DNA from: Planctomycetota bacterium
GTDB taxonomy: Bacteria; Planctomycetota; Phycisphaerae; WQYP01
Length of the DNA stretch: 64,000 nucleotides
Reading direction: 5' to 3'
NCBI GenBank assembly: GCA_021831565.1
Contig: JAKBMM010000011.1
Location: forward strand, 380 to 64,379
Below, one piece after another: positions 1 to 61,638 of this stretch. The notes under the pieces were generated by a model that did not search any database, had not been told where the DNA came from, and was given only the letters and a program-made list of their open reading frames with translations. Both the position numbers and the translations under genes were made by a program. The first letter of the stretch is position 1. Each line of letters begins with the position of its first letter.

Positions 1-39
1 TTCTGAACTTGGGTTTTCTTACAACACAGGGGTATTCTC

Positions 40-9505: not shown

Positions 9506-9603
9506 ACGCGGCAGTTAGCAGTTAATCGTTCGGGGGTATATGAAGGCGCACAATATCGCCTTGGTTATGAACTTGGTTTTTCTTACAACACAGGGGTATT
9601 CTC

Positions 9604-38389: not shown

Positions 38390-38742
38390 TGAAATCAGCG
38401 GAGAGAATAGAATCGCCCGGCGGCTTAACAACCGCCGTTACTCAAGCGGATGTGGAAAAGCTCGCCGCCGGCGGGGCGCCGGATGAGGACATCGCCGACC
38501 TGCTGGACATCAGCCGCTCCCAGCTCAGGAAACGCTTTGGCCGGGCGCTGCGCCGCGGCCGGGCGTCGCTGCGCGTCAATCTGCGCCGCGGTCAGCTTGT
38601 CCTGGCCCTGGGCCGGGCGCCCGACGTGCGCATGCTGCTGTGGCTGGGGCGGCAATATCTGGGCCAGAAGGATGACTCGGCCCCGCCCGGCGCGCCGCCA
38701 TTGGAAAAGACATATCTCAACGTGGACACAGACAAGGTATGA
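38389..38742 (+). CDS. Putative terminase small subunit / HTH protein
   Basis: HTH (EDIADLLDIS) and ML.WLG.QYLGQKD; coupled directly upstream of TerL. Confidence 0.62.
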   Translation: MKSAERIESPGGLTTAVTQADVEKLAAGGAPDEDIADLLDISRSQLRKRFGRALRRGRASLRVNLRRGQLVLALGRAPDVRMLLWLGRQYLGQKDDSAPPGAPPLEKTYLNVDTDKV

Positions 38743-40169
38743 AAAGCTCCCGGCGATCCCGCCGACACCCGGAACCGGATGCGGCCGCGGAAAAAACACC
38801 GGACCGGCTTGATCCCGCACGCCGGCCCTATCGTCCGTGGGGGGCGGCGGAAAAATTATGTTACGCCCGGGACCGCGAAATTCTTCTGGCGGGACCGGCG
38901 GGTACGGGTAAAACCCGCGCCGCCCTGGAAAAAATCTTCCTGTGCCTCCAGAAATATCCCGCCATGCGCGCCTTGCTGGTCCGAAAAACGCGGGCCAGCC
39001 TCACCCAGTCCGTCCTGGTCACCCTGGAGGAAAAAGTTTTTCCTCGGGGGCATCCGGCGCTGGGCGGTCCCGGCCGCGGCTACCGGCACGGTTACCGATT
39101 GGAAAACGGCGCCGAGTTGGTGCTCGGCGGGCTGGACAACCCCGATCGGATCATGTCCAGCGAATACGACATGGTGCTGGCCTGCGAAGCCACCGAATTG
39201 ACCATCGAAGACTGGGAAAAACTTCTCACCCGCCTGCGAAACGCCGTGCTGCCCTACCAACAGGCCATCGCCGAATGCAACCCGGCCCATCCCGGCCACT
39301 GGCTTAACGCCCGGGCGGACGCCGGCTTGATGCTGCGTCTCGTGAGCCGGCATCAGGATAATCCGACGCTTTTCGATCGCTCCACCGGACGCTGGACCGG
39401 CGCCGGCGAGAACTATTTGCATACGTTGCGGCGGCTTTCCGGAGTGCGGCGCAAACGGCTGCTCGACGGCCTCTGGGCGGCGCCGCAGGGGCTGGTTTAT
39501 GAAATGCTGCCCGATCACGTGATTTCCATTCCGCCGCCGCAAGGCCGAACGCTTCGCTGTTACGCCGGCATCGACTGGGGTTGGCGTGATCCCACCGCGG
39601 TAGTGGTCGGCCTGTTGTGCCGGGATTCGTGCCTGTACGTGGTGGACGAGCTTTATGAAAGCCGCCTGCCGCTGGAGGAATTGGCCCGCCGGCTCGACGC
39701 GTTGGTGCGGCGATGGGATATCGAGATATTTTTTGCCGACCGCTCGCGGCCGGAATTGATAGACCATCTCCGCCGGCGCGACATTGCCTGCCGGCCCGTC
39801 CCGGCGCACGGCATTGAATCCGGTATTGCCATGGTCGAATCGCGCCTGCTGGCGGGGGGGTTGAAGATTTCCGCCCGCTGCCGCCGGCTCATCGACGAAG
39901 CGAGCCAATACCAATATGCGGCCGATGCTCCAACCACGGGCAACTCCCTTCCCATACCCCTTAACGATCACGCCATGGATGCCCTGCGTTACCTGGTGGC
40001 GGCGATGGATATGGGCCGCTCCGATCCCGCCGCGTTCGAGCCGGTTTCTTCCGTCGCCTCCCTCCCGTCGTCCGCGCCGAAAAGTGCCGCAGGAGATTTG
40101 CCAAACGCCGCTATGGAGAATACCCGTTCGCACGAGCGATTGAATTTCAACCAAATATGGGGAGAATAA
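38739..40169 (+). CDS. Terminase large subunit (PBSX-like)
   Basis: GPAGTGKT, VRKT..SL, G.D.P..I.S.E, EATE, CNP; nuclease motifs GIDWG..DP, AD.S.P and DHAMDALRY. Confidence 0.88.
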   Translation: MKSSRRSRRHPEPDAAAEKTPDRLDPARRPYRPWGAAEKLCYARDREILLAGPAGTGKTRAALEKIFLCLQKYPAMRALLVRKTRASLTQSVLVTLEEKVFPRGHPALGGPGRGYRHGYRLENGAELVLGGLDNPDRIMSSEYDMVLACEATELTIEDWEKLLTRLRNAVLPYQQAIAECNPAHPGHWLNARADAGLMLRLVSRHQDNPTLFDRSTGRWTGAGENYLHTLRRLSGVRRKRLLDGLWAAPQGLVYEMLPDHVISIPPPQGRTLRCYAGIDWGWRDPTAVVVGLLCRDSCLYVVDELYESRLPLEELARRLDALVRRWDIEIFFADRSRPELIDHLRRRDIACRPVPAHGIESGIAMVESRLLAGGLKISARCRRLIDEASQYQYAADAPTTGNSLPIPLNDHAMDALRYLVAAMDMGRSDPAAFEPVSSVASLPSSAPKSAAGDLPNAAMENTRSHERLNFNQIWGE

Positions 40170-40183
40170 AGGTGAATGTAGAG

Positions 40184-40274
40184 CAAGGAAAACGGTGTTT
40201 AACGGGTCAGCCTGCTGACCGTGTCACCAAGGAAAACGGTGTTTAACGGGTCAGCCTGCTGACCGTGTCACCAA
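40184..40274 (+). repeat. Two tandem 44-bp hairpin repeats
   Basis: CAAGGAAAACGGTGTTTAACGGGTCAGCCTGCTGACCGTGTCAC twice, directly upstream of truD. Confidence 0.9.
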
Positions 40275-40294
40275 TAAAACTCGGCGGTATAGGT

Positions 40295-41590
40295 ATGCCC
40301 CATTCCTATTTAACGGCTGACCTGCCCGGCGTGGGCGGGCTTATCAAGGCTCAGCCGGACGATTTTCTCGTGGAAGAGTTGCCGCTCTATCCGCCCGCCG
40401 GCCAGGGCGCCCACTGTTATTTTGTCATTGAAAAGCGTGGAATTTCCACGCTGCACGCCGCGAACCTGCTGGCCCGGGCGCTGGGACGCCGGGCGATCGA
40501 CATCGGCTACGCCGGCCTGAAAGATGCACAAGCCGTGGCCCGCCAGACATTCTCGATTGAACTGGAAACCGAAGATCGAATCCGCTCTCTGAGCCTGCCC
40601 CAAGTGCGCATCCTGGAGGTTTCCCGCCATCGCAACAAGCTTAAAATCGGCCACCTGGCGGGCAATCGCTTCACCGTTAAAATCCGCAACGACGACTGGG
40701 CCAAACCCGGCGGTTCGGTGGAAGAGGCCCGCCTCCGGGCGCGGGCGACGCTGGATTCTCTGGGTCGTAGCGGCGTGCCGAATTTTTTCGGTCCGCAGCG
40801 CTTCGGTATGCGCGGCGATAATCATTGGTTGGGCGCGGCGCTGTTGCGCGGCCAAAGTGAAGAATTTCTGCGGCGCTGGCTGGGCGAACCGGACCCGCGG
40901 GTGGATCATGGCCCGGTGCTCCAGGCGCGCCGCCACTTTGCCCATGGCCGGATGGACCTTGCCTTGGCCGACTGGCCCGGTCATTTGTCCATGGAACGCC
41001 GGGCGTTGGCTATCCTCGCCCGCAATCCCGCCCACGGCGCGCGGGCCATGCGGTCGGTTGACGTGCGTCTCAAACGCCTGCTGGTCAGCGCGCTCCAGGC
41101 GCATCTGTTCAATGAAACCCTGCTTCGCCGGCTCAAGCGGCTGGATCGAATTCTCCCCGGCGACCTGGCTTGGAAGCACGACAACGGCGCGGTGTTTGAG
41201 GTGGGAATGTCACAGCTCCACGCCGCCGCCGAACAGCCGCGTTGCGACGCCCATGAAATTTCTCCCTCCGGTCCCATGTTCGGCTACCGCATGACGCCGG
41301 CGCAGGGCGAGCCGGGACAAATGGAGGACGAAGTCCTCGCCGCCCACGAGCTTACGCCGCGGAGTTTTCATCAACCACGATTTGCCGCCGGCGGGAGCGG
41401 CGCTGCGGGGGGGGCGGAAAAATCCAAAGGCTCCCGGCGGGCAATGCGTTTTTTCCCGACCGAACTGGACCTCGCCTCCGGCGCGGACCAGCGCGGGCCG
41501 TTCCTGCAGCTTCGTTTTGTGCTGCCGCCGGGGTGTTTCGCCACCGTTCTGCTCGGCGAGATCATGAAAACCGACCTGGCGGTGGATTAG
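40295..41590 (+). CDS. truD: tRNA pseudouridine(13) synthase TruD
   Basis: DF.VEE, AGLKDA.AV..Q, GHL.GNRF, PNFFGPQRFG and F.LP.G.FAT. Confidence 0.93.
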   Translation: MPHSYLTADLPGVGGLIKAQPDDFLVEELPLYPPAGQGAHCYFVIEKRGISTLHAANLLARALGRRAIDIGYAGLKDAQAVARQTFSIELETEDRIRSLSLPQVRILEVSRHRNKLKIGHLAGNRFTVKIRNDDWAKPGGSVEEARLRARATLDSLGRSGVPNFFGPQRFGMRGDNHWLGAALLRGQSEEFLRRWLGEPDPRVDHGPVLQARRHFAHGRMDLALADWPGHLSMERRALAILARNPAHGARAMRSVDVRLKRLLVSALQAHLFNETLLRRLKRLDRILPGDLAWKHDNGAVFEVGMSQLHAAAEQPRCDAHEISPSGPMFGYRMTPAQGEPGQMEDEVLAAHELTPRSFHQPRFAAGGSGAAGGAEKSKGSRRAMRFFPTELDLASGADQRGPFLQLRFVLPPGCFATVLLGEIMKTDLAVD

Positions 41591-41736
41591 CGGCGCCGCC
41601 GCAGCTCTACTGTCAACTGTTCACCTGCTCTACTTTCTCGCGGCGCAGCCGCGGGGGACGCAGAGGTCGCAGAGGTTTATTTTTATTGGTGACACGGTCA
41701 GCAGGCTGACCCGTTAAACACCGTTTTCCTTGTGCT

Positions 41737-42567
41737 CTATTGTCTACTTTCAACTGTTCTACTTTCTCGCGGCCTTGCCGCGTGCTCTACTATCTTTCTC
41801 CGCCGCGTCAGCAATCCCAACCCGCCCACCGCCAGCAAGGCCGCCGTAGCCGGTTCGGGGATCGTTTCCGTCGGGAACTCGGTCTTCGTGGTTCCAGTGT
41901 ATTTCTGCACGTTCGCCTTGGGCGATAGCGTAAAGTCCACCACATTCGTGAGCGAATAAGCCAACTGCGTTTTGTTGAGCGTTACCAGCGGCGGTGGGGC
42001 AAGCGTGAAAGTCTCGGAGTTGCCGGAGTATGACTCGGAACTTATCCCTGTTGCGGCGACGCCCGTTCCGGATGTCGTGTTCTGTCCGTTATACGGATCG
42101 GCGAAGCTCTGCATGGTCATGGCGAGAGTGCCTTTGGCGAATTCCCCGTCGCCGCTTTGAGCAAGAATCAGGGTGAAGGAGGAATTGGCGCCGGGACCCG
42201 TCAGGCCGGTATCTCCCAGGAGCAGCTCCAGGCTGGCTGTCGATGAGGTATTATTATTGGTCAAGTTGCGCGTGGCGAAGGTGATATAAGACGATGAGGA
42301 CGTGGCGATGATCGTCGCGTCTACGGCGCCCGAAAAGTCGCCGAATGAAAAGGTCCCGGAGCTTGGATAGTTAAAAAACGTGGAAGTGGTGTCCACGACG
42401 TTCACCAGTGCGCCCCCGTTGACGCTGGATTCGGACAGATCAAGTTCAAAATCAGCTTTGGCGCTTGTCGATGGGAGTAATGCGGCACCCGCCGCCAGAG
42501 ACAGGAAAACGATTCCCGGAACCAAAGTTCCCTTAAGGATCAGCCGGAACCTTGCCGCCGTGGTCAT
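41737..42567 (-). CDS. PEP-CTERM protein, paralog of 46813..47592
   Basis: Signal peptide; S/T-rich body; IPEPATAALLAVGGLGLLTRRRK. Confidence 0.9.
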   Translation of the reverse strand: MTTAARFRLILKGTLVPGIVFLSLAAGAALLPSTSAKADFELDLSESSVNGGALVNVVDTTSTFFNYPSSGTFSFGDFSGAVDATIIATSSSSYITFATRNLTNNNTSSTASLELLLGDTGLTGPGANSSFTLILAQSGDGEFAKGTLAMTMQSFADPYNGQNTTSGTGVAATGISSESYSGNSETFTLAPPPLVTLNKTQLAYSLTNVVDFTLSPKANVQKYTGTTKTEFPTETIPEPATAALLAVGGLGLLTRRRKIVEHAARPRESRTVESRQ

Positions 42568-42692
42568 GATGTGTCTCCTTGTATGGAGAGTGGCGGTATC
42601 CCCGCCCGCGGCGCCGCCGCCGCTCTGCGCTCAACTTTCTACTCTCCCGCTGCTCTACTTTCAACTATATACTTTCTTCCGCGGCGACGCAT

Positions 42693-42814
42693 TAGCAGCC
42701 TGTCGGACTTAGGACATGCTTGCCAGCAATGCTAACGTAGGAGGCATGAGTACGACACGAATGGTAAATGTAGATCGGAACACACCAATGCTGTTGCCCC
42801 CGGATCTGCGTGAC
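42693..42814 (+). mobile_element. Truncated IS1182-family element (left end and transposase N-terminus)
   Basis: AGGAGG RBS, then ATG 42746 MSTTRMVNVDRNTPMLLPPDLRD, resembling the IS1182 start (DR..x.LLPP.L.DW); cut off by a repeat. Confidence 0.65.
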
Positions 42815-43060
42815 TTATCCCGAACATTTCACCGCCGAGACGCAGAGATCGCAGAGGTTTATTTTTATTGGTGACACGGTCAGCAGGCTGACCCTTTAAA
42901 CATTATCCGCTTCCACCCTCCGCGTTCCTCTGTTTCCTCCGCGGTGCAAACTCGATTTACCGGACGTTATTTACCGCGGACGCGGAGTACCGCAGAGGTT
43001 TATAGCTTGTTAACCATCCGCGCGGTCTTGGCGTCTTGGCGGTTAATTCCGTGTGAACAC

Positions 43061-44293
43061 TTACCAACTTTCCACTCTCTTCCGCCTTCGCGCCAGCAGT
43101 CCCATTCCGCCCACGGCCAGCAAAGCCAGCGTGGCCGGTTCGGGTGTGGATAGGCTGAAGATCGTGCCGTAATCGCTGCTTCCGCCATGGAGGGTCATTC
43201 CATACAAGGTCGAGCCGGATTGGATCAGCGAGCCGTAGGGCCATGCGCCATCCGCGGCCCCGCCGGTAAATGAATGCAGGACCTGAAAGCCGGTTCCAAT
43301 GTCGGCGATGGAAAAGATCGTGCCATCACCGCCTCCGCCATTGGAGGTCATTCCATACAGGGTCGAACCGGATTGGATCAGCGAGCCGAGGGGACCTGCG
43401 CCATCCGCGCCGGTAAATGAATGCAGAAGCGTAATAGGTCCCCCGGCGGCAGGGATGGAAAAGATCGTGCCGAAATTGCCGCTTCCGCCGGCGTAGGTCA
43501 TTCCATACAAAGTCGAGCCGGATTGAATCAGCGAGCCCCAGAGGGGATATGCGCCATCCGTGGCCCCGCCGGTAAATGAATGCAGAAGCGTAACGGTTCC
43601 CCCGGTGTAAGGTATGGAAAAGATCGTGCCGAAATTGCTACTTCCGCCGGCGGAGGTCATCCCATACAAGGTCGAGCCGGATTGGATCAGCGAGCCTTGG
43701 GGATATTTGCCATACGTGAATGAATGCAGAAGAGAATCGGCTCCACCGGTGTCAGGTATGGAAAAGATCGTGCCGGTAGCAGCGCTCCCGCCACTGGTGG
43801 TCATCCCATACAAAGTCGAGCCGAATTGGATCAGCGAGCCGTAGGGATTTTCGCCGTCCGCGGACCCGCCGGTAAATGAATGCACAAGCGTAGGGTTCCC
43901 ACCACTGGTGCTCTCGGAAAAGATCGTGCCATAATTGCCGCTTCCGCCAAAGAGGGTCATTCCATACAAGGTCGTACCCGATTGGATCAGCGAGTCCCAG
44001 GGATTTGCGCCATCCGCGGTCCCGCCGGTAAAGGAATGCAGAAGCGTAAAACTATTTCCAGTGTCCGCGATGGAAAAGATCGTGCCTTTATTATTGCCGC
44101 TTCCGCCATCGGAGGTCATTCCATACAAGGTCGAGCCGGATTGGATCAGCGCGCCTCTGGGATATGCGCCATCCGCGGTCCCGCCGGTAAATGAATGCAG
44201 CACCTGAAAATTGCTGGCTTGGGCATAACCGACCCCCGCCGCCAACGCGCCGCATAATCCGGTTGCCAGCATTGCCTTTTGAATCGTTTTCAT
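43061..44293 (-). CDS. PEP-CTERM protein with 7 GloVer (TIGR03803-like) repeats
   Basis: Seven LHSF.G...GA.P...LIQSGSTLYGMT..GG....GTIFS units; TPEPATLALL tail. Confidence 0.9.
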   Translation of the reverse strand: MKTIQKAMLATGLCGALAAGVGYAQASNFQVLHSFTGGTADGAYPRGALIQSGSTLYGMTSDGGSGNNKGTIFSIADTGNSFTLLHSFTGGTADGANPWDSLIQSGTTLYGMTLFGGSGNYGTIFSESTSGGNPTLVHSFTGGSADGENPYGSLIQFGSTLYGMTTSGGSAATGTIFSIPDTGGADSLLHSFTYGKYPQGSLIQSGSTLYGMTSAGGSSNFGTIFSIPYTGGTVTLLHSFTGGATDGAYPLWGSLIQSGSTLYGMTYAGGSGNFGTIFSIPAAGGPITLLHSFTGADGAGPLGSLIQSGSTLYGMTSNGGGGDGTIFSIADIGTGFQVLHSFTGGAADGAWPYGSLIQSGSTLYGMTLHGGSSDYGTIFSLSTPEPATLALLAVGGMGLLARRRKRVESW

Positions 44294-44562
44294 GGTTTTC
44301 TCCCTAATGTCCATAGACGACCAGCAGGCTGGCCGGTTAACCAAATTTACTTTCCGACTCGCACCGCTCGCGGCTTTGCCGGCGCATTATCCCGAACATT
44401 TCACCGCCGAGACGCAGAGGTCGCAGAGGTTTATTTTTATTGGTGACACGGTCAGCAGGCTGACCCGTTAAACACAGTTTTCCTTGTGCTCTACTTTCTT
44501 TCGCCGCAGCCCGGCCCGTGCATGCCACGGGCCGGGCCAAGTTGAATAGCTTGAATAGCCGT

Positions 44563-45570
44563 TCAAGCTATTGCCTTCCGCCTGCGCTTAAGCAGCAATC
44601 CCAACCCGCCCACGGCCAGCAAAGCCAGCGTGGCCGGTTCGGGGACAGTGCCAAGCTGCGCTGACACGTTGTCAATTGCCAGGTTGTTGCCGGCAAAATT
44701 AGTTTGCCAGTTGGTGGGCCAGAGGTAATTGGTGCCACCGAGAGTGGAACTTGGCGCTCCGTTCGGAAAATTAAGTGCCGCGGTAGTCAGAAGACCACCT
44801 GTGAGCCCTAGTTGATTGCCTGAATTATCGTAAACCGCAAAAGCAACACCGGCGGGATCGGTAGTACCATTACCTGTTTTGCTATATGCCAGAGTAAAGG
44901 TATACCAGCCGTTCTTGGTGATTGTGACAAAAGGCGTGTTTGGCGTGGTGCCGCCGTTTGCATTCACATCTACAGTTCCCGCAGTTGGCACGGTGAATTG
45001 AAAATCGGACTCCGTCGCCCAGTTCGGGGCGCCAGTGGTATCACTTGCGGTTTCGTCGATCTCGAAAGCAGTACCACCACCAGTAGGCGGCGCCCACGCC
45101 CCGGTCCCGGTAACAGGCACATAAACACTCACAGATTGAGTAAATGCACCGGGATAAGTAGCCATCATGCCGGCGTATGCAGGGGTATCAGTGGAAGTGC
45201 CGAATAGGCTGTAACCCGCGTCGCCTCCATTGTGAATGTTGCCATTGATATTATTTCCAAGCACCGCATAGGAGGAGCTACCGCCGGCGCCGCCAATCAA
45301 ACCAAGTGGTGATGTGCCATTACCACTACCCGGTCCATATCGGGTGATGGAATAAGTGCCGGTACTTGTTGCCACACTTTGGCTCTGACCTATGCCTGTG
45401 GCTGTGCCGCTAAACCACCAACCGCTTACACCATTGGCTGAATTTTCATATCCTCTGGAATAAGGAACATCCGCCTTGATGATTCCGGCGGACAACAGGG
45501 CTATTCCCGCCGCCGCCGCAGCGCCTAAGCCGAGCATGGTTTTGGTTGAGGATGATTTGTTCTTAAACAT
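44563..45570 (-). CDS. PEP-CTERM protein (MFKNKSSSTK leader family)
   Basis: Signal peptide and VPEPATLALLAVGGLGLLLKRRRKAIA. Confidence 0.9.
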   Translation of the reverse strand: MFKNKSSSTKTMLGLGAAAAAGIALLSAGIIKADVPYSRGYENSANGVSGWWFSGTATGIGQSQSVATSTGTYSITRYGPGSGNGTSPLGLIGGAGGSSSYAVLGNNINGNIHNGGDAGYSLFGTSTDTPAYAGMMATYPGAFTQSVSVYVPVTGTGAWAPPTGGGTAFEIDETASDTTGAPNWATESDFQFTVPTAGTVDVNANGGTTPNTPFVTITKNGWYTFTLAYSKTGNGTTDPAGVAFAVYDNSGNQLGLTGGLLTTAALNFPNGAPSSTLGGTNYLWPTNWQTNFAGNNLAIDNVSAQLGTVPEPATLALLAVGGLGLLLKRRRKAIA

Positions 45571-45788
45571 GGTTTACTCCTTAATGTCCATAGATGGCCA
45601 GCAGGCTGGCCGGTTTACCAAACCGACTCGCAACACGCGGGTCGGAACTTTCCTGTGGCAGGCTTTCTCGCCTGCGTTTGTTTTCGCGGGCACTCGCGCC
45701 CGCCTATCCCATAGCCGCTCCGCTGTGCCTCCTTTCGCGGCTTTGCCGCCGCTCTACTTTCAACTTTCTACTCTCTTTCGCCGGCGCA

Positions 45789-45955
45789 TTAGCCCCAACA
45801 TTTCACCGCCGAGGTTGTTGAAATGAAAGACCATATAGAGATTCTTTCCCACAACACCTCAGATACAGACTCTTTGCCATCTCATCATTTCTATCCATTT
45901 ACTCCACCGTGGCCTCAGCGCACTCTGCGCCTCTGCGGTGCAAACTCCGGGTTAG
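45789..45955. mobile_element. TTAG-flanked MITE-like element
   Basis: Related to 34879-35074; flanked by 56-bp imperfect direct repeats of a PEP-CTERM gene tail. Confidence 0.6.
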
Positions 45956-45977
45956 CGGCTTTGCCGCCGCTCTACTT

Positions 45978-46691
45978 TCAACTCTCTACTCTCTTCCGCC
46001 GCCGCATTAGCAATCCGAGTCCGCCCAGAGCCAGCAGCGCCAGCGTGGCCGGTTCGGGGGCGGTGGTTGTATAGCTGAGGGTGACATTCGATCCGCCCGC
46101 CAGGCTCAGTTCCAGGGTATTACCCATGGAAAAGGGATTGCTTCCATTGGGACTGAACCCAGCCGTTTGCTGAACCAGTGTCTGCGTTTGGGGAAAACCG
46201 CCGCTTGAATAGGTCACGGTGTATGAAGGCGTCTGCACCGGCGGCGGCGTGGTCAGAGAGAATTGGCCGTCGGCCGAGTCGGCGCCGCTGACATAAGTGG
46301 CGGAGTCGCCGCTGGTGGCGGCATTGAACGTCACGCTGCCGGAACCGGCCAGGGTCATGGAGGAGCCGACCGGCGAGAAACCGGTATCCCATAAATTGAT
46401 CGCCAATATATCGGGCCCCACTGTCGTGTCAGTATTCTTTACGCCCACACTAATGGCACTGATCTGCGGCGTATTCGAAGAGCCGGAATTGGATGTGGCG
46501 TCGTAGATGGTGATGTCAAATGTGCCGACCGTAACATTCGACTGATTAATAACGCCGCCACTGCCCGTGAAACTGGTAATTGGGCCGCCGTTGGCTTCGA
46601 ACTGCGCCACAAAGCTCGCCTGGGCCGCCGAGGCGGCCAAACTCATCGCTGCCGCGGCGAGCACCATAGATCCGAAAATCTTGAATTGCAT
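45978..46691 (-). CDS. PEP-CTERM protein
   Basis: Signal peptide ending AQA; APEPATLALLALGGLGLLMRRRK. Confidence 0.9.
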   Translation of the reverse strand: MQFKIFGSMVLAAAAMSLAASAAQASFVAQFEANGGPITSFTGSGGVINQSNVTVGTFDITIYDATSNSGSSNTPQISAISVGVKNTDTTVGPDILAINLWDTGFSPVGSSMTLAGSGSVTFNAATSGDSATYVSGADSADGQFSLTTPPPVQTPSYTVTYSSGGFPQTQTLVQQTAGFSPNGSNPFSMGNTLELSLAGGSNVTLSYTTTAPEPATLALLALGGLGLLMRRRKRVES

Positions 46692-46812
46692 AAAAAACTC
46701 CCTTGTAAAAAGCATTGTTATTTTTTCTTGGTGACACGGTCAGCAGGCTGACCCGTTAAACATCGTTTTCCTTGTGCTCTACTTTCTCGCGGCTTTGCCG
46801 CGTGCTCTACTT

Positions 46813-47592
46813 TCAACTCTCTACTCTCTTTCTCCGCCGCGCCAGCAATCCGAGTCCGCCCACAGCCAGCAACGCCAGTGATGCCGGTTCGGGGATTGTT
46901 CCCGACGGGTTCTCGGTCAGCGTGGTCCCGTTGTAGTTGAGCTGGCTTACATTTATGTTTGCCCCGGATGATAGCGTGATGTCCACCACATTCGTGAGCG
47001 AATAGTCCAACTGTGTTTTGGTCAGCGTCGCCGTGGTCGGATTCGATAAAAGCGTGAAAGATACGGGGCTGGTGGTGTTGTTTGTCAATGATAACACCGA
47101 GCTTACCGGTGTCGCGGCGACGCCCGATCCGGATGTCGTGTTCTGGCCGTTATGCGGATCGGCGAAGCTCTGCATGGTCATGGTGAGAGTGCCGTTGGTG
47201 AGTTCACCGCCGCCGCTTTGGGCGAGTTCTAGAGTGCCGGTATTTGTGGGGCCGGGTCCCGTAAAACCTGTATCTCCCAGGAGCAGTTCTATGGTGGCTG
47301 GGTTTGGGCCCGTGTTATTATTGGTCAGGTTGATCGTGGCGAAGGTGATGTAACCCGACGACGCGCCGGCGGCGGGATCATTGGTTGCCGCGCTTACGGA
47401 TCCCGAAAAACCGCCGAATCCACCGGTGGGGGTGGAATAGGACAAAGAGGTGGACGGAGTACTTGCTACGTTCACCAGTGTGCCCCCGCTGGGCACGGCC
47501 AGATCAAGTTCAAAAGCAGCTTTCGCGCTGTTCGGCAGAAGCAACGCCGCGCCCGCCGCCAGGCATAAAATTTTCACTGTGATGTTTGGCAT
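46813..47592 (-). CDS. PEP-CTERM protein, paralog of 41737..42567
   Basis: Shares YITFAT.NLTNNN, ELLLGDTG and MTMQSFADP.NGQNTTSG; IPEPASLALL tail. Confidence 0.9.
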   Translation of the reverse strand: MPNITVKILCLAAGAALLLPNSAKAAFELDLAVPSGGTLVNVASTPSTSLSYSTPTGGFGGFSGSVSAATNDPAAGASSGYITFATINLTNNNTGPNPATIELLLGDTGFTGPGPTNTGTLELAQSGGGELTNGTLTMTMQSFADPHNGQNTTSGSGVAATPVSSVLSLTNNTTSPVSFTLLSNPTTATLTKTQLDYSLTNVVDITLSSGANINVSQLNYNGTTLTENPSGTIPEPASLALLAVGGLGLLARRRKRVES

Positions 47593-47664
47593 GTTAAGAC
47601 TCCTTAAGATTCCTTACATAGTTGTCAGCTACCTCGTGGTAGCCGCGGCATTCCGCCGCGTCGC

Positions 47665-47717
47665 GTAATGCAGGCTTCCAGCCTGCTTATTCCGGCGGGC
47701 GAGACGCCCGCTCCACA
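47665..47717. repeat. REP-like inverted hairpin pair
   Basis: GCAGGCTTCCAGCCTGC and GCGGGCGAGACGCCCGC-TCCACA; a similar hairpin lies at 51106-51132. Confidence 0.45.
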
Positions 47718-47854
47718 ATTCCACAATTCCATTCTCCAGGCTTTTCATGTCTCGGCGGTGAAAGCCCCGAAAACCTTACGCGGCCGTTCCACAAAACCCG
47801 GCGGAGCGGGAGAGTAACGCCCCGCCGGGTCAGAGTGGATATTGGCCGGGCCGT

Positions 47855-48013
47855 TCAAGTGCGATGCCGGCGAATGTCCGGCCACCAGTCGCATTGAACC
47901 ATCATCCAGATCAACCACCCCAGAACCGGCGCCGCCGCCGCCAGTGGCAGGGAAACGATTCGCCGGGCCAAGGGTTGATTCACGCTCATGGAAAACCGTG
48001 CCGTGGTAGTCAT
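47855..48013 (-). pseudogene. Degenerate 5' end of a PEP-CTERM paralog
   Basis: AAGGAG RBS then MTTTARF...L...IVSL.LAA.A..L, resembling the MTTAARF... leader of 41737..42567; stops early with no PEP-CTERM tail. Confidence 0.5.
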
Positions 48014-48182
48014 GACAGTTTTCTCCTTTACGTTTTCCGGGCCCCAGCCCGGCCCGTGTCTCAAAACACGGACCGGGCCATTCTCCCGGCTCGCTGGGGA
48101 CCTGATCCGTACGCGCCGGAATTGAGCCGTTTCTTCGCGGGCGGGGCCTTTTTAAGAGGTTGGCCCACGAAGTCATCAAACT

Positions 48183-48827
48183 TCAAGCCAGGCTTTTATG
48201 GCGACGCCGGACCAGCAATCCCAAGCCGCCCAGGCTTAGCAAACCGAGCGTGGCTGGTTCGGGGGTGGCATACTGGACTCCCTGCGGGCCTACTGTCCCT
48301 GTGTCTATGCCGTCAATGGAAGGTGGTGTCCAGCCGGGGACGCTCGCGTCATTGCTGTTAAGCCAGTTCAACACGAGATCCTGGTTGTTCGCCGAGGTGT
48401 CGTAGATATCGCCCAGATCATAAACATTTGGAAATGGCGAGGCGCTGGCATTACTGCTGTTTAGGATAACATACGGGGGCGTCGAACCAGCTGTTGAAAA
48501 ACTCGACAGATTGCCTTCGGCAACATACGAAGATGTCGATGTGAGCACGCCCCAGCCGCCGGCGGCGTCATACTTCGTCAACGGCTCTTGGTAATTAGCA
48601 ACGAGAAATTGATTAGCGGTGGAAGTTCCGTCAGCAGTCGTAGTGACACCATAACCACCAAATTCGACATTGTTACCCACAAAGAGGGTATCGCCCGTGA
48701 CGGTGTTGACCCAGAGGGTCATCTGTCCGGATGGCGGCGGCGCGAAGCTGTTGCCGGCAAAAGCAGCGCCGGTGGAAAGCATGCATCCCGCGGCCAGCGA
48801 GGCCATAAATGGAAGTTTACGTGACAT
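48183..48827 (-). CDS. PEP-CTERM protein
   Basis: Start MSRKLPF behind AAGGAG; TPEPATLGLLSLGGLGLLVRRRHK. Confidence 0.9.
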   Translation of the reverse strand: MSRKLPFMASLAAGCMLSTGAAFAGNSFAPPPSGQMTLWVNTVTGDTLFVGNNVEFGGYGVTTTADGTSTANQFLVANYQEPLTKYDAAGGWGVLTSTSSYVAEGNLSSFSTAGSTPPYVILNSSNASASPFPNVYDLGDIYDTSANNQDLVLNWLNSNDASVPGWTPPSIDGIDTGTVGPQGVQYATPEPATLGLLSLGGLGLLVRRRHKSLA

Positions 48828-49238
48828 GATTTTCTCCTTATTGTCCATAGACGGCCAGCAGGCTGGCCGGTTTACCCCCGGCTCGCAACACACGAGCCGG
48901 GACGGCCAGCAGGCTGGCCGGTTAACCAACCCGACTCGCAACACGCGGGTCGGAACTTTACTGTGGCAGGCTCTCTCGCCTGCGTTTGTTTTCGCGGGCG
49001 CTATCACCCGCCTATCCCATATCCGCTCCGATGTACCTCCTTTCGCGGCGCTGCCGCCGCTCTACTTTCTTCCGCGCCGCCGCATTAGCCCGAACATTTC
49101 ACCGCCGAGACGCAGAGAGCGCAGAGGTTTATTGGTGACATGGTCAGCAGGCTGACCCGTTAAACACAGTTTTCCTTGTGCTCTACTTTCGCCCCAGCCC
49201 GGTCCGTGCATGCCACGGGCCGGGCTGTGAATAGACTT

Positions 49239-50153
49239 TTAGGCTATTGCCTTGCGTCTGCGTTTGAGCAACAATCCCAATCCGCCCACGGCCAGCAAAG
49301 CCAGCGTGGCCGGTTCGGGGACTACTGCAATGCTGTCCGGGTAATCCAACCCCGTGACCAGTGAGGCATTCACCGTACCGCCGGCAGTGGTATATTCTCC
49401 AATCGTGTTGTTGGCCGTATTCAGCTCAAACAGGTCTGATCCCGAAACGGCAATGCCGTTCGGTTCTCCCAACCCCGTGACCAGAGAGGCGTTCACCGTG
49501 CCGCCCGAGGTGGTATATTCGCCGATCGTGTTGTTGCCTTCATTTGTGACAAACAGGTCTGATCCCGACACGGCAATGCCGGACGGGCCATTCAACCCCG
49601 TGACCAGCGAGGCATTCACTGTGCCGCCCGTGATGGTATATTCGCCGATCGTGTTGTTGCCATAATTCGAGACAAACAGGTCTGAGCCCGAAACGGCAAT
49701 GTCGGTCGGGCTATTCAACCCCGTGACCAGTGAGGCATTCACCGTGCCGCCCGTGATGGTATATTCGCCGATCGTGCTGTTGCCATAATTCGAGACAAAC
49801 AGGTCTGAGCCCGAAACGGCAATGCCGGACGGGCCATTCAACCCCGTGACCAGAGAGGCATTCACCGTGCCGCCCGTGATGGTATATTCGCCCATCGTGC
49901 TGTTGCCATAATTCGCGACAAACAGGTCTGATCCCGAAACGGCAATGCCGTTCGGTTCATCCAACCTCGTGACCAGAGAGGCATTCACCGTACCGCCGGC
50001 ATTGGTATATTCGCCGATCGTGTTATTGGAAAAATTCGTGACAAAGATGTTTCCGCGCGCGCTCGCAGGCATGAGCGCCGAACCCGTCGCTAACGCCGCC
50101 GCGGCGCCTAAGCCGAGCATGATTTTGGTTGAGGATGATTTGTTCTTAAACAT
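49239..50153 (-). CDS. PEP-CTERM protein with six 41-aa NHL-like repeats
   Basis: Six LFV.N....TIGEYT..GGTVNASLVTGL..P..IAV units (123-bp period); MFKNKSSSTK leader. Confidence 0.9.
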   Translation of the reverse strand: MFKNKSSSTKIMLGLGAAAALATGSALMPASARGNIFVTNFSNNTIGEYTNAGGTVNASLVTRLDEPNGIAVSGSDLFVANYGNSTMGEYTITGGTVNASLVTGLNGPSGIAVSGSDLFVSNYGNSTIGEYTITGGTVNASLVTGLNSPTDIAVSGSDLFVSNYGNNTIGEYTITGGTVNASLVTGLNGPSGIAVSGSDLFVTNEGNNTIGEYTTSGGTVNASLVTGLGEPNGIAVSGSDLFELNTANNTIGEYTTAGGTVNASLVTGLDYPDSIAVVPEPATLALLAVGGLGLLLKRRRKAIA

Positions 50154-50210
50154 GGTTTACTCCTTAATGTCCATAGATGGCCAGCAGGCTGGCCGGTTTA
50201 CTTGTTTGTG

Positions 50211-50244
50211 CCGGCCCGGCCCGTGCAAAAACACGGGCCGGGCC
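50211..50244 (-). terminator. GC-rich stem-loop downstream of a PEP-CTERM gene
   Basis: GGCCCGGCCCGTG..CACGGGCCGGGCC; relatives at about 44509-44538, 48046-48079 and 49197-49225; no U-tract, so it may be a stabiliser instead. Confidence 0.45.
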
Positions 50245-50258
50245 AACTTAATAGCCGT

Positions 50259-50987
50259 TTAAGCTATTGCCTTGCGTCTGCGTTTGAGCAGCAATCCCAG
50301 GCCGCCCACGGCCAGCAAAGCCAGTGTGGCCGGTTCGGGAGTGGAGGTGATACTCATTGAACTAATATAGGCGGTTGCATTATTGCCACTTGAGCCATAT
50401 GCGCCAATAGAGGCCCACGCGGCATTTACCATCATATCGCCATAATCAATCCCATTATATGGAGTATCATAAATGCTTGACAACTGCACGTTCTGCTCTG
50501 CCCACGTATAGGTCTTGGTATTCCATACCCCTACTGTTGATGAGCCGTCCAGTGTATAGGCGTTGGTGTTGCTTCCAAAGTTAATGATATCAAAATTGTC
50601 TCCATTGACATCACTGACGCCAAAAAGGGTATACGGCTGGCCAGGTCCCGTAGTACTAGGCACAGTAATAGACATACTGTCATATCTTAGAGCACCTAGA
50701 TTACCATTGTATGCGGGAGGTGTTCCAACCCATGCTTCCGTCCAATAAGCACTATTGGTAATAGTCATAAGAGCGGATCCACCATAACTGCTAGAATAAC
50801 CGGCACTATATGAATCGGTGCCGCCCGTAGTCTTATAACCACCATATGACACGATATTATTTGTCGGAACCCAACCGGTGCCGCTAATTGTCGTTGTATT
50901 CGCAAACAATGACCCGGCTGACAAAAAAGCCGCCGCGGCGCCTAATCCGAGCATGAGTTTGGTTGAGGATGATTTGTTCTTAAACAT
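50259..50987 (-). CDS. PEP-CTERM protein (MFKNKSSSTK leader family), AT-rich body
   Basis: TPEPATLALLAVGGLGLLLKRRRKAIA. Confidence 0.9.
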   Translation of the reverse strand: MFKNKSSSTKLMLGLGAAAAFLSAGSLFANTTTISGTGWVPTNNIVSYGGYKTTGGTDSYSAGYSSSYGGSALMTITNSAYWTEAWVGTPPAYNGNLGALRYDSMSITVPSTTGPGQPYTLFGVSDVNGDNFDIINFGSNTNAYTLDGSSTVGVWNTKTYTWAEQNVQLSSIYDTPYNGIDYGDMMVNAAWASIGAYGSSGNNATAYISSMSITSTPEPATLALLAVGGLGLLLKRRRKAIA

Positions 50988-51275
50988 GGTTTACTCCTTA
51001 ATAATGTCTATAAACGGCCAGCAGGCTGGCCGGTTAACCAGGTATCCTCACCGACCCGCAACACACGGGCCGGGACGGCCAGCAGGCTGGCCGGTTTACC
51101 GGGTCGGCGGCCTGGAAGGCCGCCTCCCATACAGGGGCCGTTCGCATGTCTCTGGCGGGGGGCCGCGTGGGGCGGGGGGAGGAAAGAGGGGTGTGAGTGT
51201 GAGTGTCAGTCAGTGTAAGCGCCCCGAGTGAGCGGCCGCGCGTCAGAGACACGCGAACTATTCAGCGAGCCATAT

Positions 51276-51785
51276 TCAATTGTTTGCTTTTGCCAGTTTC
51301 GTCCCCTTTCGACGCCGCGAGGCGTCCATCCGTTGTGAATAATCGGGTGCGGGCGCCCGCGGTCGCGGTCGGCCGGCGGCAACGGACTCAGTCGCCTGTT
51401 CCACAGCGGCGCCCGCTTTGTTAAGGTCCAGCAGCCCGGCCACCACGGCCGGCGCCTGCTCGCAATCGTTCAGGTAGCAGGTGGCGCCGGCGGCCAGGAC
51501 GGCCCGCTCCAACGCGGGCCGATCCGGCCGGCCGATGGCGACGCACCAAGTGGGTCGCCAGAGCCTTCGCAATCCCCGGATCAAGGTCAGATCGCCGGCG
51601 CCGGCAAGTTCCAGCACGACGACCCGCACCCGGCAACGCGCCACACGGCGAATCAAGGCCTCGATGGCGTCGGTCGGGCCGGGGGTTGCAATCATCCATC
51701 GCCAGTGGGCGGCCAAGGAGCGCAGCTCGCGGCATTGGCCGCGGCTGATCACCAGCACGCTACTGCGAGCCATATCGCCCATCAT
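51276..51785 (-). CDS. Atypical receiver (REC)-like domain protein
   Basis: Alternating beta/alpha pattern with VVVLE, LIR.LR and A..AGA..YL; canonical Asp and Lys absent. Confidence 0.5.
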   Translation of the reverse strand: MMGDMARSSVLVISRGQCRELRSLAAHWRWMIATPGPTDAIEALIRRVARCRVRVVVLELAGAGDLTLIRGLRRLWRPTWCVAIGRPDRPALERAVLAAGATCYLNDCEQAPAVVAGLLDLNKAGAAVEQATESVAAGRPRPRAPAPDYSQRMDASRRRKGTKLAKANN

Positions 51786-51859: not shown

Positions 51860-51876
51860 AGCAACAGACGTGCCAC
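51860..51876 (-). promoter_or_regulatory. Sigma54 (-24/-12) promoter
   Basis: Minus strand reads TGGCACGTCTGTTGCT, matching TGGCAC-N5-TTGC. Confidence 0.8.
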
Positions 51877-52099: not shown

Positions 52100-52283
52100 C
52101 AAGGAAAACGGTGTTTAACGGGTCAGCCTGCTGACCGTGTCACCAAGTGAACAGTTGACAGGAGAGCTCCAGGAAACGGTGTTTAACGGGTCAGCCTGCT
52201 GACCGTGTCACCAAGTGAACAGGTGACAGGAGAGCACAAGGGAACCGGTGTTTAACGGGTCAGCCTGCTGACCGTGACACCAA
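52100..52283 (+). repeat. Three tandem copies (about 69-bp period) of the GGTCAGCCTGCTGACC hairpin repeat
   Basis: Same unit as 40184-40274; the linkers are nearly identical to each other. Confidence 0.9.
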
Positions 52284-52468
52284 CAAAATAAACCTCTGCG
52301 GCCCCCTGCGTCCCCCGCGGTAAATAACGCGGTGAGCAGGGCACATGGAAATTGATTTACTTTGGGTAGCCGAAATCGCTACAATAAGGGCGACTGGAGA
52401 TTCGGGCGCCAAAAGACCAGGGCGTAACTCCGGGTGGAAAGATTTGCTTTACCGCGAGGTATTCGACC

Positions 52469-52765
52469 ATGATCGGGCCAATCCATGTCATGACGCTTGG
52501 TTTGTTTCAGAACTTTTTCGACGGCCCGGACATTCTGATTGTGGCGCTGGTCGCCCTGCTGTTGTTCGGCAAAAGGCTGCCGGATATCGCCCGCAGCCTG
52601 GGACGAACCATTGTTGAATTCAAAAAGGGTCTTAACCAGACTTCCGATGAAATCAACCGGGCTTCGCAGGAAGATACGCCGCCGGAAAAGCCGACCATTG
52701 CCGCGCCCACCTCGGCGAACCCCCGCCAGATCAAGCAGGTCACCAACGTCAGCGAAGAACCGTGA
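52469..52765 (+). CDS. tatA: Twin-arginine translocase TatA/TatE subunit
   Basis: LLLFG.RLP..ARSLG....EFKKG. Confidence 0.9.
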   Translation: MIGPIHVMTLGLFQNFFDGPDILIVALVALLLFGKRLPDIARSLGRTIVEFKKGLNQTSDEINRASQEDTPPEKPTIAAPTSANPRQIKQVTNVSEEP

Positions 52766-52807
52766 ACACCCGCGCCAACCCCGGCGGAGGCGGATATCAA
52801 AAGTTGC

Positions 52808-52973
52808 TAACCGTTCACGGCGGCGCACAAAACGGCCGCGGGATTGCGATCCTCGCGGCTGCCCCATGGTCGCCATCCCCCGCAGCCGTGGATGGAAATC
52901 CACGGCCGTCCTTAACCGCAAACCATCATGCCTCGTAATCCAACCACCGCTCGATTACCATCCACGAGCGTGA
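52808..52973. mobile_element. Partial copy of the long GTAACCGTTCAC MITE
   Basis: Matches the left part of 55004-55321. Confidence 0.75.
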
Positions 52974-52980
52974 CCGGAAG

Positions 52981-61327: not shown

Positions 61328-61638
61328 GGGATCGGTCGCCGGCCCAGGCCCTTGGCGGGCGTGATCCGCGTGTCCCGCCTGTATCGCCGCCGCCGCTTCC
61401 AATAAACCCCCAACGCCACGAATCGTGTAACGGCAAAAATCTCCCGATCCAAGCCGCATGATCCAGCCGGATTGCTTACGCTGTCAAGGGCGTGGCAATT
61501 TTTTCGCAAGCAGGCGGAGAATCTCGATAGTGATCGGAATCGCCGGCCGGCAGCTATCGGGATTCCCTCTTCCACCATGGCGCAACGGTCCATTCTTACC
61601 ACAAGGTGACACGAAGAAATGAATGGCATTAGAATAAA

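Follow-up and report, generated by a model that had tools for sequence, protein, structure and literature searches.

Few surface proteins of environmental bacteria are as numerous and as little understood as the PEP-CTERM proteins, and the turnover of their repertoires is poorly documented. In the PEP-CTERM/exosortase (EpsH/Xrt) protein-sorting system as described by Haft et al. (2006; PMC1569441), the PEP-CTERM region is a modular domain, far more alike within than between species, and the proteins have a C-terminal PEP motif, helix and basic tail as well as N-terminal signal peptides. The bodies vary widely and seldom belong to known families, a genome contains many copies beside one exosortase, most genes form units of their own preceded by sizeable intergenic stretches, and some homologs carry the tail whereas others lack it. 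The array described here, which lies in a window (the whole stretch of DNA analysed) of 64,000 nucleotides from an uncultured member of the Phycisphaerae (Planctomycetota), resembles that system in these respects, its signal peptides being putative. In contrast to that description, likeness is here shown at the DNA level and for both gene ends together (upstream DNA plus leader, and tail plus hairpin), and a strain-level deletion is bounded by one of these ends. The array reveals no new mechanism. It does provide a clean case, at the single-base and strain level, of an export leader and an exosortase tag behaving as portable modules, the repetition of which would make whole passenger domains gainable and losable through ordinary recombination.

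Shared upstream-plus-leader DNA followed by divergent mature parts is also found in Borrelia lipoproteins (the upstream homology box), Mycoplasma vsp/vlp and streptococcal emm-like families. The middles of these families mostly vary a single protein or are sets of repeats, and in some of the systems site-specific recombinases or one expression site are at work. Like them, the array combines ends conserved for expression and export with middles that diverge, and its members recombine; but its bodies differ in fold, none of its genes is partial, and an exosortase signal serves as the C-terminal module. Antigenic variation by gene conversion works with one expression site and silent, promoterless, partial donor cassettes whose middles are variants of one homologous protein, whereas here all eight units are complete and the bodies of the three genes with shared ends are mutually unrelated. 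Integron arrays likewise consist of co-directional units of unrelated content with repeated, palindrome-containing junction DNA and presence or absence of whole units among strains. Unlike in integrons, however, no integrase was found among the window ORFs scanned, a ribosome-binding site (RBS) and an upstream element belong to every single unit, both ends of the repeated junction consist of coding DNA, and the palindrome is dispersed over the genome and located at 5' ends rather than being cassette-specific.

The array belongs to a 2.81-Mb, 86-contig metagenome assembly (G000) and consists of eight genes, g1 to g8, all on the minus strand, as are all features located below. Each is a complete ORF with start codon (picked by RBS), RBS and sorting tail, and all eight exceed the cut-offs of PF07589 (22.3-27.8 bits; cut-off 20.7) and TIGR02595 (23.3-28.3 bits; cut-off 16), the latter with 40 matches over cut-off across the genome, of which these are eight. 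Judged by eye, all eight N-termini have a basic n-region, a run of hydrophobic residues and a site resembling Ala-X-Ala. The sole exosortase match in the genome (PF09721, 175.1 bits) lies outside the window on another contig (C78, 25192-25965), and the proteins are probably exported and processed by exosortase. A preliminary description, made from the letters of the window, had likewise recorded eight co-directional PEP-CTERM genes and no exosortase in the window.

Five of the genes have ends of other types. The only paralogs within the array are g1 (41737..42567, 276 aa) and g5 (46813..47592, 259 aa), with 57% amino-acid identity. The g2 protein (43061..44293, 410 aa) contains seven GloVer repeats (TIGR03803, 259.7 bits in seven stretches; cut-off 44) and has a paralog on contig C69 (77% nt); g6 (48183..48827, 214 aa) has one on C61 (83% nt), and g4 (45978..46691, 237 aa) is duplicated together with g5 on C10 (84% nt over 1657 nt) and C7 (78%). 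These paralogs of g2, g4, g5 and g6 (77-84% nt) show segmental duplication to be active in this genome. Upstream of the array lies ORF169 (51276..51785), a receiver-like protein kept beside related arrays: it is 37% identical (E 2e-20) to an ORF of genome G015, whose PF00072 match is below cut-off, and a homolog adjoins a g3 homolog in G024.

The remaining three genes, g3 (44563..45570, 335 aa), g7 (49239..50153, 304 aa) and g8 (50259..50987, 242 aa), carry what is here called class-I arms. Their leader reads MFKNKSSSTK(T/I/L)MLGLGAAAA and their shared C-terminal end PEPATLALLAVGGLGLLLKRRRKAIA, and among 41 regex candidates and 40 HMM hits in the genome only these three have a leader and tail of this type. 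The 5' arm is made up of about 47 nt of upstream DNA and the first 21 codons, and in g3 (45508..45617) contains a palindrome-bearing upstream element (repeat families D8 and D10) and the RBS. It is 98% identical to that of g7 (50091..50200) over 108 nt, including 47 of 47 upstream non-coding bases, while the arm of g8 (50925..51037, with the upstream element present once more at 51048-51100) is 91% identical to that of g7 over 113 nt and 84% to that of g3 over 148 nt. The 3' arm comprises 26 sorting-signal codons, the stop codon and a GC-rich hairpin, and is located at 44505..44643 in g3, 49190..49319 in g7 and 50209..50339 in g8; the 3' arm of g8, a 105-nt spacer and the 5' arm of g7 form one continuous junction of about 250 nt. 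From PEP motif to stop the tails are 90-94% identical in DNA and have the same residue at 26 of 26 positions, and the likeness runs on into the hairpin (81-86% over 129-217 nt), a simple perfect GC stem without a T-run (folds of -35.4, -28.9 and -39.4 kcal/mol and z of -3.7, -4.0 and -6.4 in g3, g7 and g8, respectively). The other five genes are only 54-69% (3') and 44-69% (5') identical to these arms. Down to their non-coding and synonymous positions, the arms of g3, g7 and g8 thus share descent at the DNA level. Because the tails carry 5-7 synonymous changes, their identity in protein is upheld in part by selection and not by recent copying alone.

The palindromic element is carried by five of the eight genes and absent from three. 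Besides the three arms, a type B copy precedes g2 (44290..44342; family D10, 89%), whose signal peptide is its own, and two type B copies precede g6 (48824..48927). It is a lineage-specific repeat dispersed over the genome and not confined to the cassettes, and among the genomes compared it lies in the arms in G000 only.

Between these arms the bodies are unrelated: no pair among g3, g7 and g8 shows similarity (blastp E > 1). The g7 body is a beta-propeller of tandem NHL repeats (PF01436, 67.5 bits, cut-off 20; PF24684, 61.3 bits, cut-off 50), with five to six internal repeats of 123 nt in its DNA, and those of g3 and g8 are two other all-beta bodies. The preliminary description had seen near-identical leaders and tails around unrelated bodies in these three genes, and both halves of that observation hold.

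Comparison with other genomes separates the history of the ends from that of the bodies. In other genera the body families of g3, g7 and g8 have different, genome-specific ends. The 5' arms, 84-94% identical among the three genes in this comparison, are 46-56% identical to those of the body homologs in G015 and G002, and the tails are 90-94% identical within G000 vs 56-75% across genomes. A leader, a tail and intergenic DNA peculiar to G015 are common to its g8 and g3 homologs and two unrelated neighbours there (tail 85%, downstream 94%). Conversely, in the sister species G001, of the same genus, the class-I leader type, an identical KRRRKAIA tail and the class-I hairpin enclose a body without tblastn match in G000, and a second gene combines the leader with a different body and a different tail. 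(Sequences of G001 that match g2, g4 and g5 lie dispersed over short contigs, at about 75% nt, and its TatA flank runs into dut; it was therefore unusable for array synteny.) The NHL bodies of five other genomes end without a PEP-CTERM tail, and others have one. Ends thus cluster by genome and bodies by protein family.

We therefore regard the locus as probably, although with considerable room for doubt, an ordinary cargo array of the PEP-CTERM/exosortase system, in which general homologous recombination keeps the short end modules alike and moves them between genes. Each gene would be a separate unit, in which a 5' module (short upstream element, RBS and start of a Sec-type signal peptide) and a 3' module (PEP motif, transmembrane helix, basic tail, stop codon and GC-rich hairpin) enclose an unrelated passenger body. 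Because the modules are short, functionally constrained and repeated many times per genome, general homologous recombination would keep copying them from gene to gene by gene conversion, and crossover between repeated modules would produce unequal exchange. Neighbouring unrelated genes would in this way acquire near-identical ends, and in the course of time whole bodies would enter or leave the array or come to lie between other ends, with g3, g7 and g8 carrying one common version of both modules. The process is likely of the RecA type rather than the work of a dedicated enzyme: at E <= 1e-5, no match to an integrase, a recombinase or a transposase family occurs in the 29 window ORFs or in the array and flanking ORFs scanned, in agreement with the preliminary description. 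Gene conversion and unequal crossover suffice, and nothing points to a dedicated swapping machine.

Variation among strains is consistent with such exchange. In the strain of run X13, a contig joins position 50178 to 51016, leaving out 837 nt, and the 5' arms of g7 and g8 lie exactly this distance apart. The shorter side of the joint measures 92 nt, only 20 letters are shared, and there is no depth over the g8 body; the variant is based on one contig, of depth about 5, in one run. The arms act as crossover sites, the breakpoint of this loss of g8 lying inside the repeated 5' arm. Other joints were rejected: those with sides under 31 letters (among them 45783>50214, 41732>51108 and 45939>49085), and one (48014>49259) that fits a paralogous locus, contig C3 containing an 89% copy of 47720-48029. 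Run X14 lacks depth over the g7 and g8 bodies but has low coverage and no contig joining across them, and gives no evidence. The absence of g8 in X13, the fourth body in G001, the different ends in other genera and the tail-less NHL bodies show leader, body and anchor to be reassorting modules, with the arms as recombination substrates. A breakpoint in an arm, for which the preliminary description had proposed to compare strains, is thus found, and neither of the observations that it held would speak against it, i.e., a static array and a fixed pairing of bodies with ends, applies, so that its interpretation survives in part.

That description went further and proposed that the middles are foreign domains swapped between conserved arms. 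In this explanation, bodies from other lineages would be brought in by double crossover with the arms as homology anchors, making the array a platform for surface-protein diversification. Base composition speaks for it. As had been noticed by eye, the g3 and g8 bodies are more AT-rich than their ends, with a GC3 of 0.49 and 0.41, respectively, vs 0.60-0.71 in their own arms; both values are below the 1st percentile of the genome (0.50; median 0.68; 1422 ORFs of at least 350 aa), the arms are not, and the shift is located near the arm boundaries. In a ranking of 36 PEP-CTERM ORFs by GC3, g8 comes last and g3 third from last. The low GC3 of these two bodies, next to native-looking arms, is not explained by conversion alone and fits import. 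The body in G001 that carries the same arms and is not found in G000, the ComEC competence gene in the window and a cassette-scale mosaic in X13, with differences of about 3-4% in the pieces of g3 and g6 but of 0.1-0.3% in those over g1 and g4, also favour it. However, g7 has a native GC3 (0.69), and the homologs of g8 and g3 in G015 are GC3-poor as well (0.40 and 0.46 vs 0.52-0.64 in neighbours), so that low GC3 may be a trait of these gene families.

The search for a donor also argues against import. The closest relatives of all three bodies are already PEP-CTERM proteins of the same Phycisphaerae family, with similar leader types (MFSNKS.. in G002, MLSNRSS.. in G019, MFMKKS.. in G015). Homologs of g3, a rare Phycisphaerae family, occur in 10 and those of g7 in 15 of 45 genomes of the family, G000 being counted in both, and g8 has homologs in G015 (53%) and G019 (40%). 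No closer donor was found among 5.8 billion protein clusters, where the best non-self match is 54% for g3 and 36% for g8. In G015 the homologs of g7, g8 and g3 share one contig beside the ORF169 homolog; as those of g3 and g8 adjoin there next to this same receiver-like gene, their pairing is old. On these comparisons, the g3, g7 and g8 bodies are old residents of the bacterial family. Import from other lineages is accordingly unlikely: of the original proposal, the reassortment of modules in a non-static array stands, and the foreign origin is doubtful, the best matches of the bodies leading to the same family and partly to a syntenic array instead of a foreign donor. Conversion of ends and replacement of middles would leave the same pattern, which makes the direction of exchange ambiguous.

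A related and still more doubtful idea is that the class-I arms, instead of being just passively homogenised repeats, constitute together with palindromic element and hairpin a standing landing frame that in this planctomycete lineage captures passenger domains from relatives, which would then be expressed, exported and sorted without further adaptation. If true, this would be a recombination-based, integron-like but integrase-free platform for surface-protein turnover, visible among strains as arm-bounded presence or absence and as allele mosaics.

Very improbable is an account without recombination, in which common descent and strong purifying selection on signal peptide, sorting signal and regulatory DNA maintain the ends. 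The absence of amino-acid changes in the tails vs several synonymous ones is a mark of purifying selection, and MF.NKS leader types are kept across genera on these body families. However, whole-gene common descent is excluded because the bodies are unrelated, and selection on function fits poorly with the fully identical non-coding stretch of g3 and g7 when the arms of body homologs elsewhere are unalignable, or with a lineage-specific palindromic element found in arms only in G000; constraint on each single base of that stretch throughout the PEP-CTERM genes of this lineage is contradicted by three of the eight array genes, which lack it. That the pattern is an artefact of assembly, with repeats causing bodies and ends to be wrongly stitched or different ends to be collapsed, is hardly credible in spite of the fragmented assembly, the public contigs of the population that break at every arm and several short-sided joints with ambiguous assembly graphs, since contigs of runs X1 and X5, from two different studies, cover the g3 (44617-45569) and g8 (50288-50987) bodies into both arms with 0 differences, the three copies of each arm differ and are hence not collapsed, and the independent G015 and G001 assemblies have the same architecture. 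The gene order itself, which those public contigs cannot confirm, relies on a metagenome assembly that had to pass repeats as long as about 110 nt. As a practical warning, such arms break short-read assemblies, so that metagenome-assembled genomes probably give under-assembled PEP-CTERM repertoires or a wrong order of the genes.

With regard to structure, AlphaFold2 models of g3 (mean pLDDT 54.0, 6-row alignment) and g8 (54.6, 4-row alignment) are poor. Matches to AcrF2, L21, CIS12 and Vgb lyases in Pfam/NCBIfam were below exception cut-offs and set aside. Neighbours in the ESM Atlas, to be taken as leads only, are beta jelly-roll, lectin or CBM-like clusters (TM 0.5-0.65).

The upstream element may be a promoter- or operator-like site. 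Known RNA families do not explain it (an Rfam scan of the whole window gave 0 matches at gathering score), and an RNA-structure role of the type B element is not supported, its 6-bp hairpin being no better than shuffles (z -0.4 to -0.8). Scans for sigma-70 and terminator consensus sequences found nothing at the arms. Unlike proteobacterial PEP-CTERM genes, those of the array are not preceded by a sigma-54 motif, no array intergenic region matching the -24/-12 site with up to 2 mismatches to a proteobacterial-type consensus; five of the eight have the palindromic element instead. With 271.6 bits, the activator next to the array of G015 is below the TIGR02915 cut-off of 502.6, and the array does not appear to form a PrsK/PrsR sigma-54 regulon. 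The single perfect match to the sigma-54 consensus lies at 51860-51875, upstream of ORF169.

PEP-CTERM proteins carry a signal peptide that takes them across the inner membrane and a PEP-CTERM helix that retains them there, and an exosortase has been proposed to cleave and transfer them (Haft et al., 2006, PMC1569441). In the assembly under study (G000; 2.81 Mb, 86 contigs, 59% GC), where the window covers positions 380-64379 of contig C50, eight genes on the minus strand, g1 to g8 by rising coordinate (41737-50987, 9.3 kb), are bordered by truD (40265-41590, +) on one side and by the receiver-like ORF169 (51276-51785, -) on the other. All eight are co-directional, as the preliminary description had it, and 8/8 pass both PF07589 and TIGR02595. 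The g2 body consists of seven GloVer repeats and that of g7 of an NHL-repeat propeller, and no family match was found for the other bodies. The whole genome holds 40 PEP-CTERM matches and a single exosortase, which lies on a different contig from the array; none was found in the window, in line with what had been noticed before, and integrase and transposase families were likewise not found among the window ORFs scanned.

The near-identical ends described for g3, g7 and g8 (class-I arms) are borne out, as both arms are common to all three genes while the bodies between them give blastp E values above 1. The 5' arm extends from about -47 to codon 21, and between g3 and g7 it is 98% identical over 108 nt, including 47/47 upstream bases, with the g8 copy at 84-91% identity to the other two. 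The 3' arm begins at the PEP codons and encodes 26/26 same residues in the three genes, at 90-94% DNA identity with all differences synonymous, and beyond the stop codon the likeness extends into a GC-rich hairpin (14-17 bp, -29 to -39 kcal/mol). No further copy of the class-I leader and tail was found in the G000 genome outside these three genes, and the arms of the other five array genes are clearly less alike to them. Segmental duplicates of g2, g4, g5 and g6 are present elsewhere in the genome.

The comparison with other genomes of the bacterial family separates the history of the ends from that of the bodies. In G015, which belongs to a different genus, homologs of g7, g8 and g3 share one contig: after dnaE and the g7 homolog come a sigma-54 activator and a receiver-like ORF (37% identity to ORF169), followed by an unrelated PEP-CTERM gene, the g8 homolog, then the g3 homolog and finally another PEP-CTERM gene. 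As they sit together there too, g3, g8 and the receiver-like gene are neighbours of long standing. The g8 and g3 homologs and their unrelated neighbours in G015 have a leader (MFMK..) and a tail (..KRKRKMVSV) of their own in common, and the DNA between these genes is nearly identical as well. The g7 homolog, which lies away from the other array genes, has its own ends, whereas g7 of G000 lies inside the array and bears class-I ends. When homologous bodies are compared across genomes, their arms are hardly alignable (5' arms 46-56%, tails 56-75%), against 84-94% for 5' arms and 90-94% for tails among g3, g7 and g8 within G000. Both address labels and the flanking non-coding DNA are common to unrelated genes and clustered by genome. 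Arms clustering by genome and bodies by family is the signature of ends that evolve in concert. In the G015 array (L002 ~285-300, contig C62), a run of eight A in the shared leader of the fourth gene places this leader out of frame relative to those of its neighbours; the run is a tract prone to slippage or else an error in the assembly.

Arms also reassort with bodies. In the sister species G001, one gene has the class-I leader type, a tail identical to that of class I (..LLLKRRRKAIA) and, at its 3' end, the same hairpin, with arms at ~62-79% nucleotide identity to the class-I arms and a body without any tblastn match in G000. A second G001 gene joins the same leader type to yet another body and a different tail, and a g3-like body of this species (40% identity) also ends in a different tail. 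Bodies with NHL repeats, as in g7, carry a PEP-CTERM tail in G019, G047 and G015 and lack it in five other genomes. Leaders of the MF.NKS type recur on the g3, g7 and g8 body families in other genera, which makes the leader an old module with local homogenisation.

At the strain level, the arms bound a deletion. The array stretch was found, whole or in part, in 17 listed runs of 7 studies on metagenomes from mine drainage, tailings and sediment; one of these runs may be the source. Contigs of four runs, each belonging to a different study, were aligned to the array. In runs X1 and X5, a contig with 0 differences covers each body and ends inside the arms, which break the assembly graph. In X13, which represents a related strain, a single contig connects 50178 to 51016 and omits 837 nt, exactly the spacing between the 5' arm copies of g7 and g8; the joint has 20 letters in common and at least 92 letters on either side, and depth over the g8 body is zero. 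This single contig, at depth ~5, is read as a g8-less variant that would have arisen from a crossover between the g7 and g8 5' arms, and it indicates that the array is not static. Divergence in X13 is uneven, with differences at 1/853 positions in the g1 piece and 1/383 in the g4 piece, and at 18/598 in the g3 piece and 21/727 in the g6 piece, plus gaps, a pattern that on these thin data fits cassette-scale allele exchange. Other contig joints, which either have short sides or fit paralogs, were left out.

The proposed driver is general homologous recombination among the short end repeats. Gene conversion would homogenise the end modules, unequal crossover would delete or duplicate whole units, and occasional recombination would pair a body with new ends. 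ComEC, the DNA uptake channel (58793-61483, -), and the RecG helicase (61633-63816, +) are encoded within the window, 8-13 kb from the array, and bear on DNA uptake and recombination here only circumstantially.

The composition of the bodies is less readily explained. The AT-richness suspected for two of them is real, with GC3 at 0.41 in g8 and 0.49 in g3 versus 0.60-0.71 in their arms (genome median 0.68, 1st percentile 0.50); the sliding profile rises at both ends of these genes and is flat in g7, and in a ranking of 36 PEP-CTERM ORFs from this genome g8 comes lowest and g3 third lowest. Gene conversion alone leaves these values unaccounted for. They may point to bodies imported from a relative of lower GC, but the g3 and g8 homologs in G015 are likewise GC3-poor relative to their neighbour genes, and low GC3 may be a trait of these gene families. 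All three body families are patchily present within the same bacterial family, with g3 homologs in 10/45 genomes (38-55% identity) and g7 homologs in 15/45, G000 being included in both tallies, and with g8 homologs in two of 41 relatives, G015 (53%) and G019 (40%). The g3-family relatives that bear names are Planctomycetota/Phycisphaerae metagenome-assembled genomes. Searched against 5.8 billion protein clusters, the g3 body retrieved 10 proteins only (best non-self 54%) and the g8 body two, itself and one at 36%, and no closer donor was found there for either. The foreign origin attributed to the bodies is not borne out by these searches.

Five of the eight genes (g2, g3, g6, g7 and g8) are preceded, 28-50 nt before the start codon, by a conserved element whose core is a 16-nt palindrome; the element is doubled before g6 and g8. 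A sister form of this core is dispersed through G000 as a repeat with 31 exact copies, and 25 relatives have 0-2 one-mismatch copies each. About half of the copies fall in a 12-kb stretch of the window (40204-40290, 41680-41745, 42860-42927, 44430-44499, 46720-46787, 49125-49191 and 52120-52300); others lie on contigs C3, C7, C11, C18, C36, C43, C61, C70, C74 and C85, and elsewhere in the genome the core is embedded in a ~240-nt repeat, often at contig ends. This lineage-specific repeat may be a MITE- or REP-like element. As RNA, the upstream element folds no better than shuffled sequence, and no sigma-54 site was found before the array genes; it may be a promoter, an operator or no more than a repeat carried along with the arm. 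Across the 64 kb, the sigma-54 -24/-12 consensus is matched without any mismatch at one site only (51860-51875, -), ~75 nt upstream of ORF169. The G015 homolog of ORF169 comes after the sigma-54 activator, immediately ahead of the related PEP-CTERM array, and the G000 copy of this activator (58% identity) is on contig C33.

The sorting system and the modular principle are already known. Haft et al. (2006, PMC1569441) reported that PEP-CTERM regions resemble one another much more within a species than from one species to another, that homolog pairs with and without the tail exist, making the tail modular, and that most PEP-CTERM genes stand alone, each with a long intergenic region in front. 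No literature pairing 'PEP-CTERM' with 'gene conversion' was found, and the matches listed for 'PEP-CTERM' and 'recombination' include, by their titles and abstract starts, no study of recombination among PEP-CTERM genes. The g1-g8 case contributes the DNA-level view of both ends, the cross-genome contrast and the strain variant. Overall, the initial observation is confirmed and its interpretation as domain swapping between the arms is partly supported, the array being an ordinary system in which modular recombination has left a clear and instructive trace.

Several further features were noted in the window. The g7 and g2 bodies are built of tandem DNA repeats (49324-50115, 123-nt units, 72-85% identity; 43102-44245, 144-159-nt units, 71-87% identity) and are therefore prone to internal recombination too. 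Between g6 and g5, a 52-aa ORF (47855-48013, -), preceded by an RBS of its own and encoding a single hydrophobic helix and a Trp-rich end, has a paralog on contig C3 (89% nucleotide identity) and a look-alike downstream of a PEP-CTERM gene in G001 (contig C207, L049 1869-2171), and may encode a small membrane protein travelling with PEP-CTERM arrays. Directly before truD, a lone ORF (38739-40169, +) resembles the large subunit of PBSX-type phage terminases (TIGR01547, 48 bits, below cut-off; PF04466, 36.7 bits), and no further phage genes were recognised near it. Two giant PATR-repeat proteins are encoded at 7-8886 and 9571-13242 (+), the second with an autotransporter beta-domain. Finally, the TatA/glycosyltransferase flank (52348-53893) is 91-93% identical in nucleotides to G001 contig C47 (L012), which continues past it with dut and an amidotransferase; in G000 both genes are on contig C53, so that synteny breaks off at the border of the array region.
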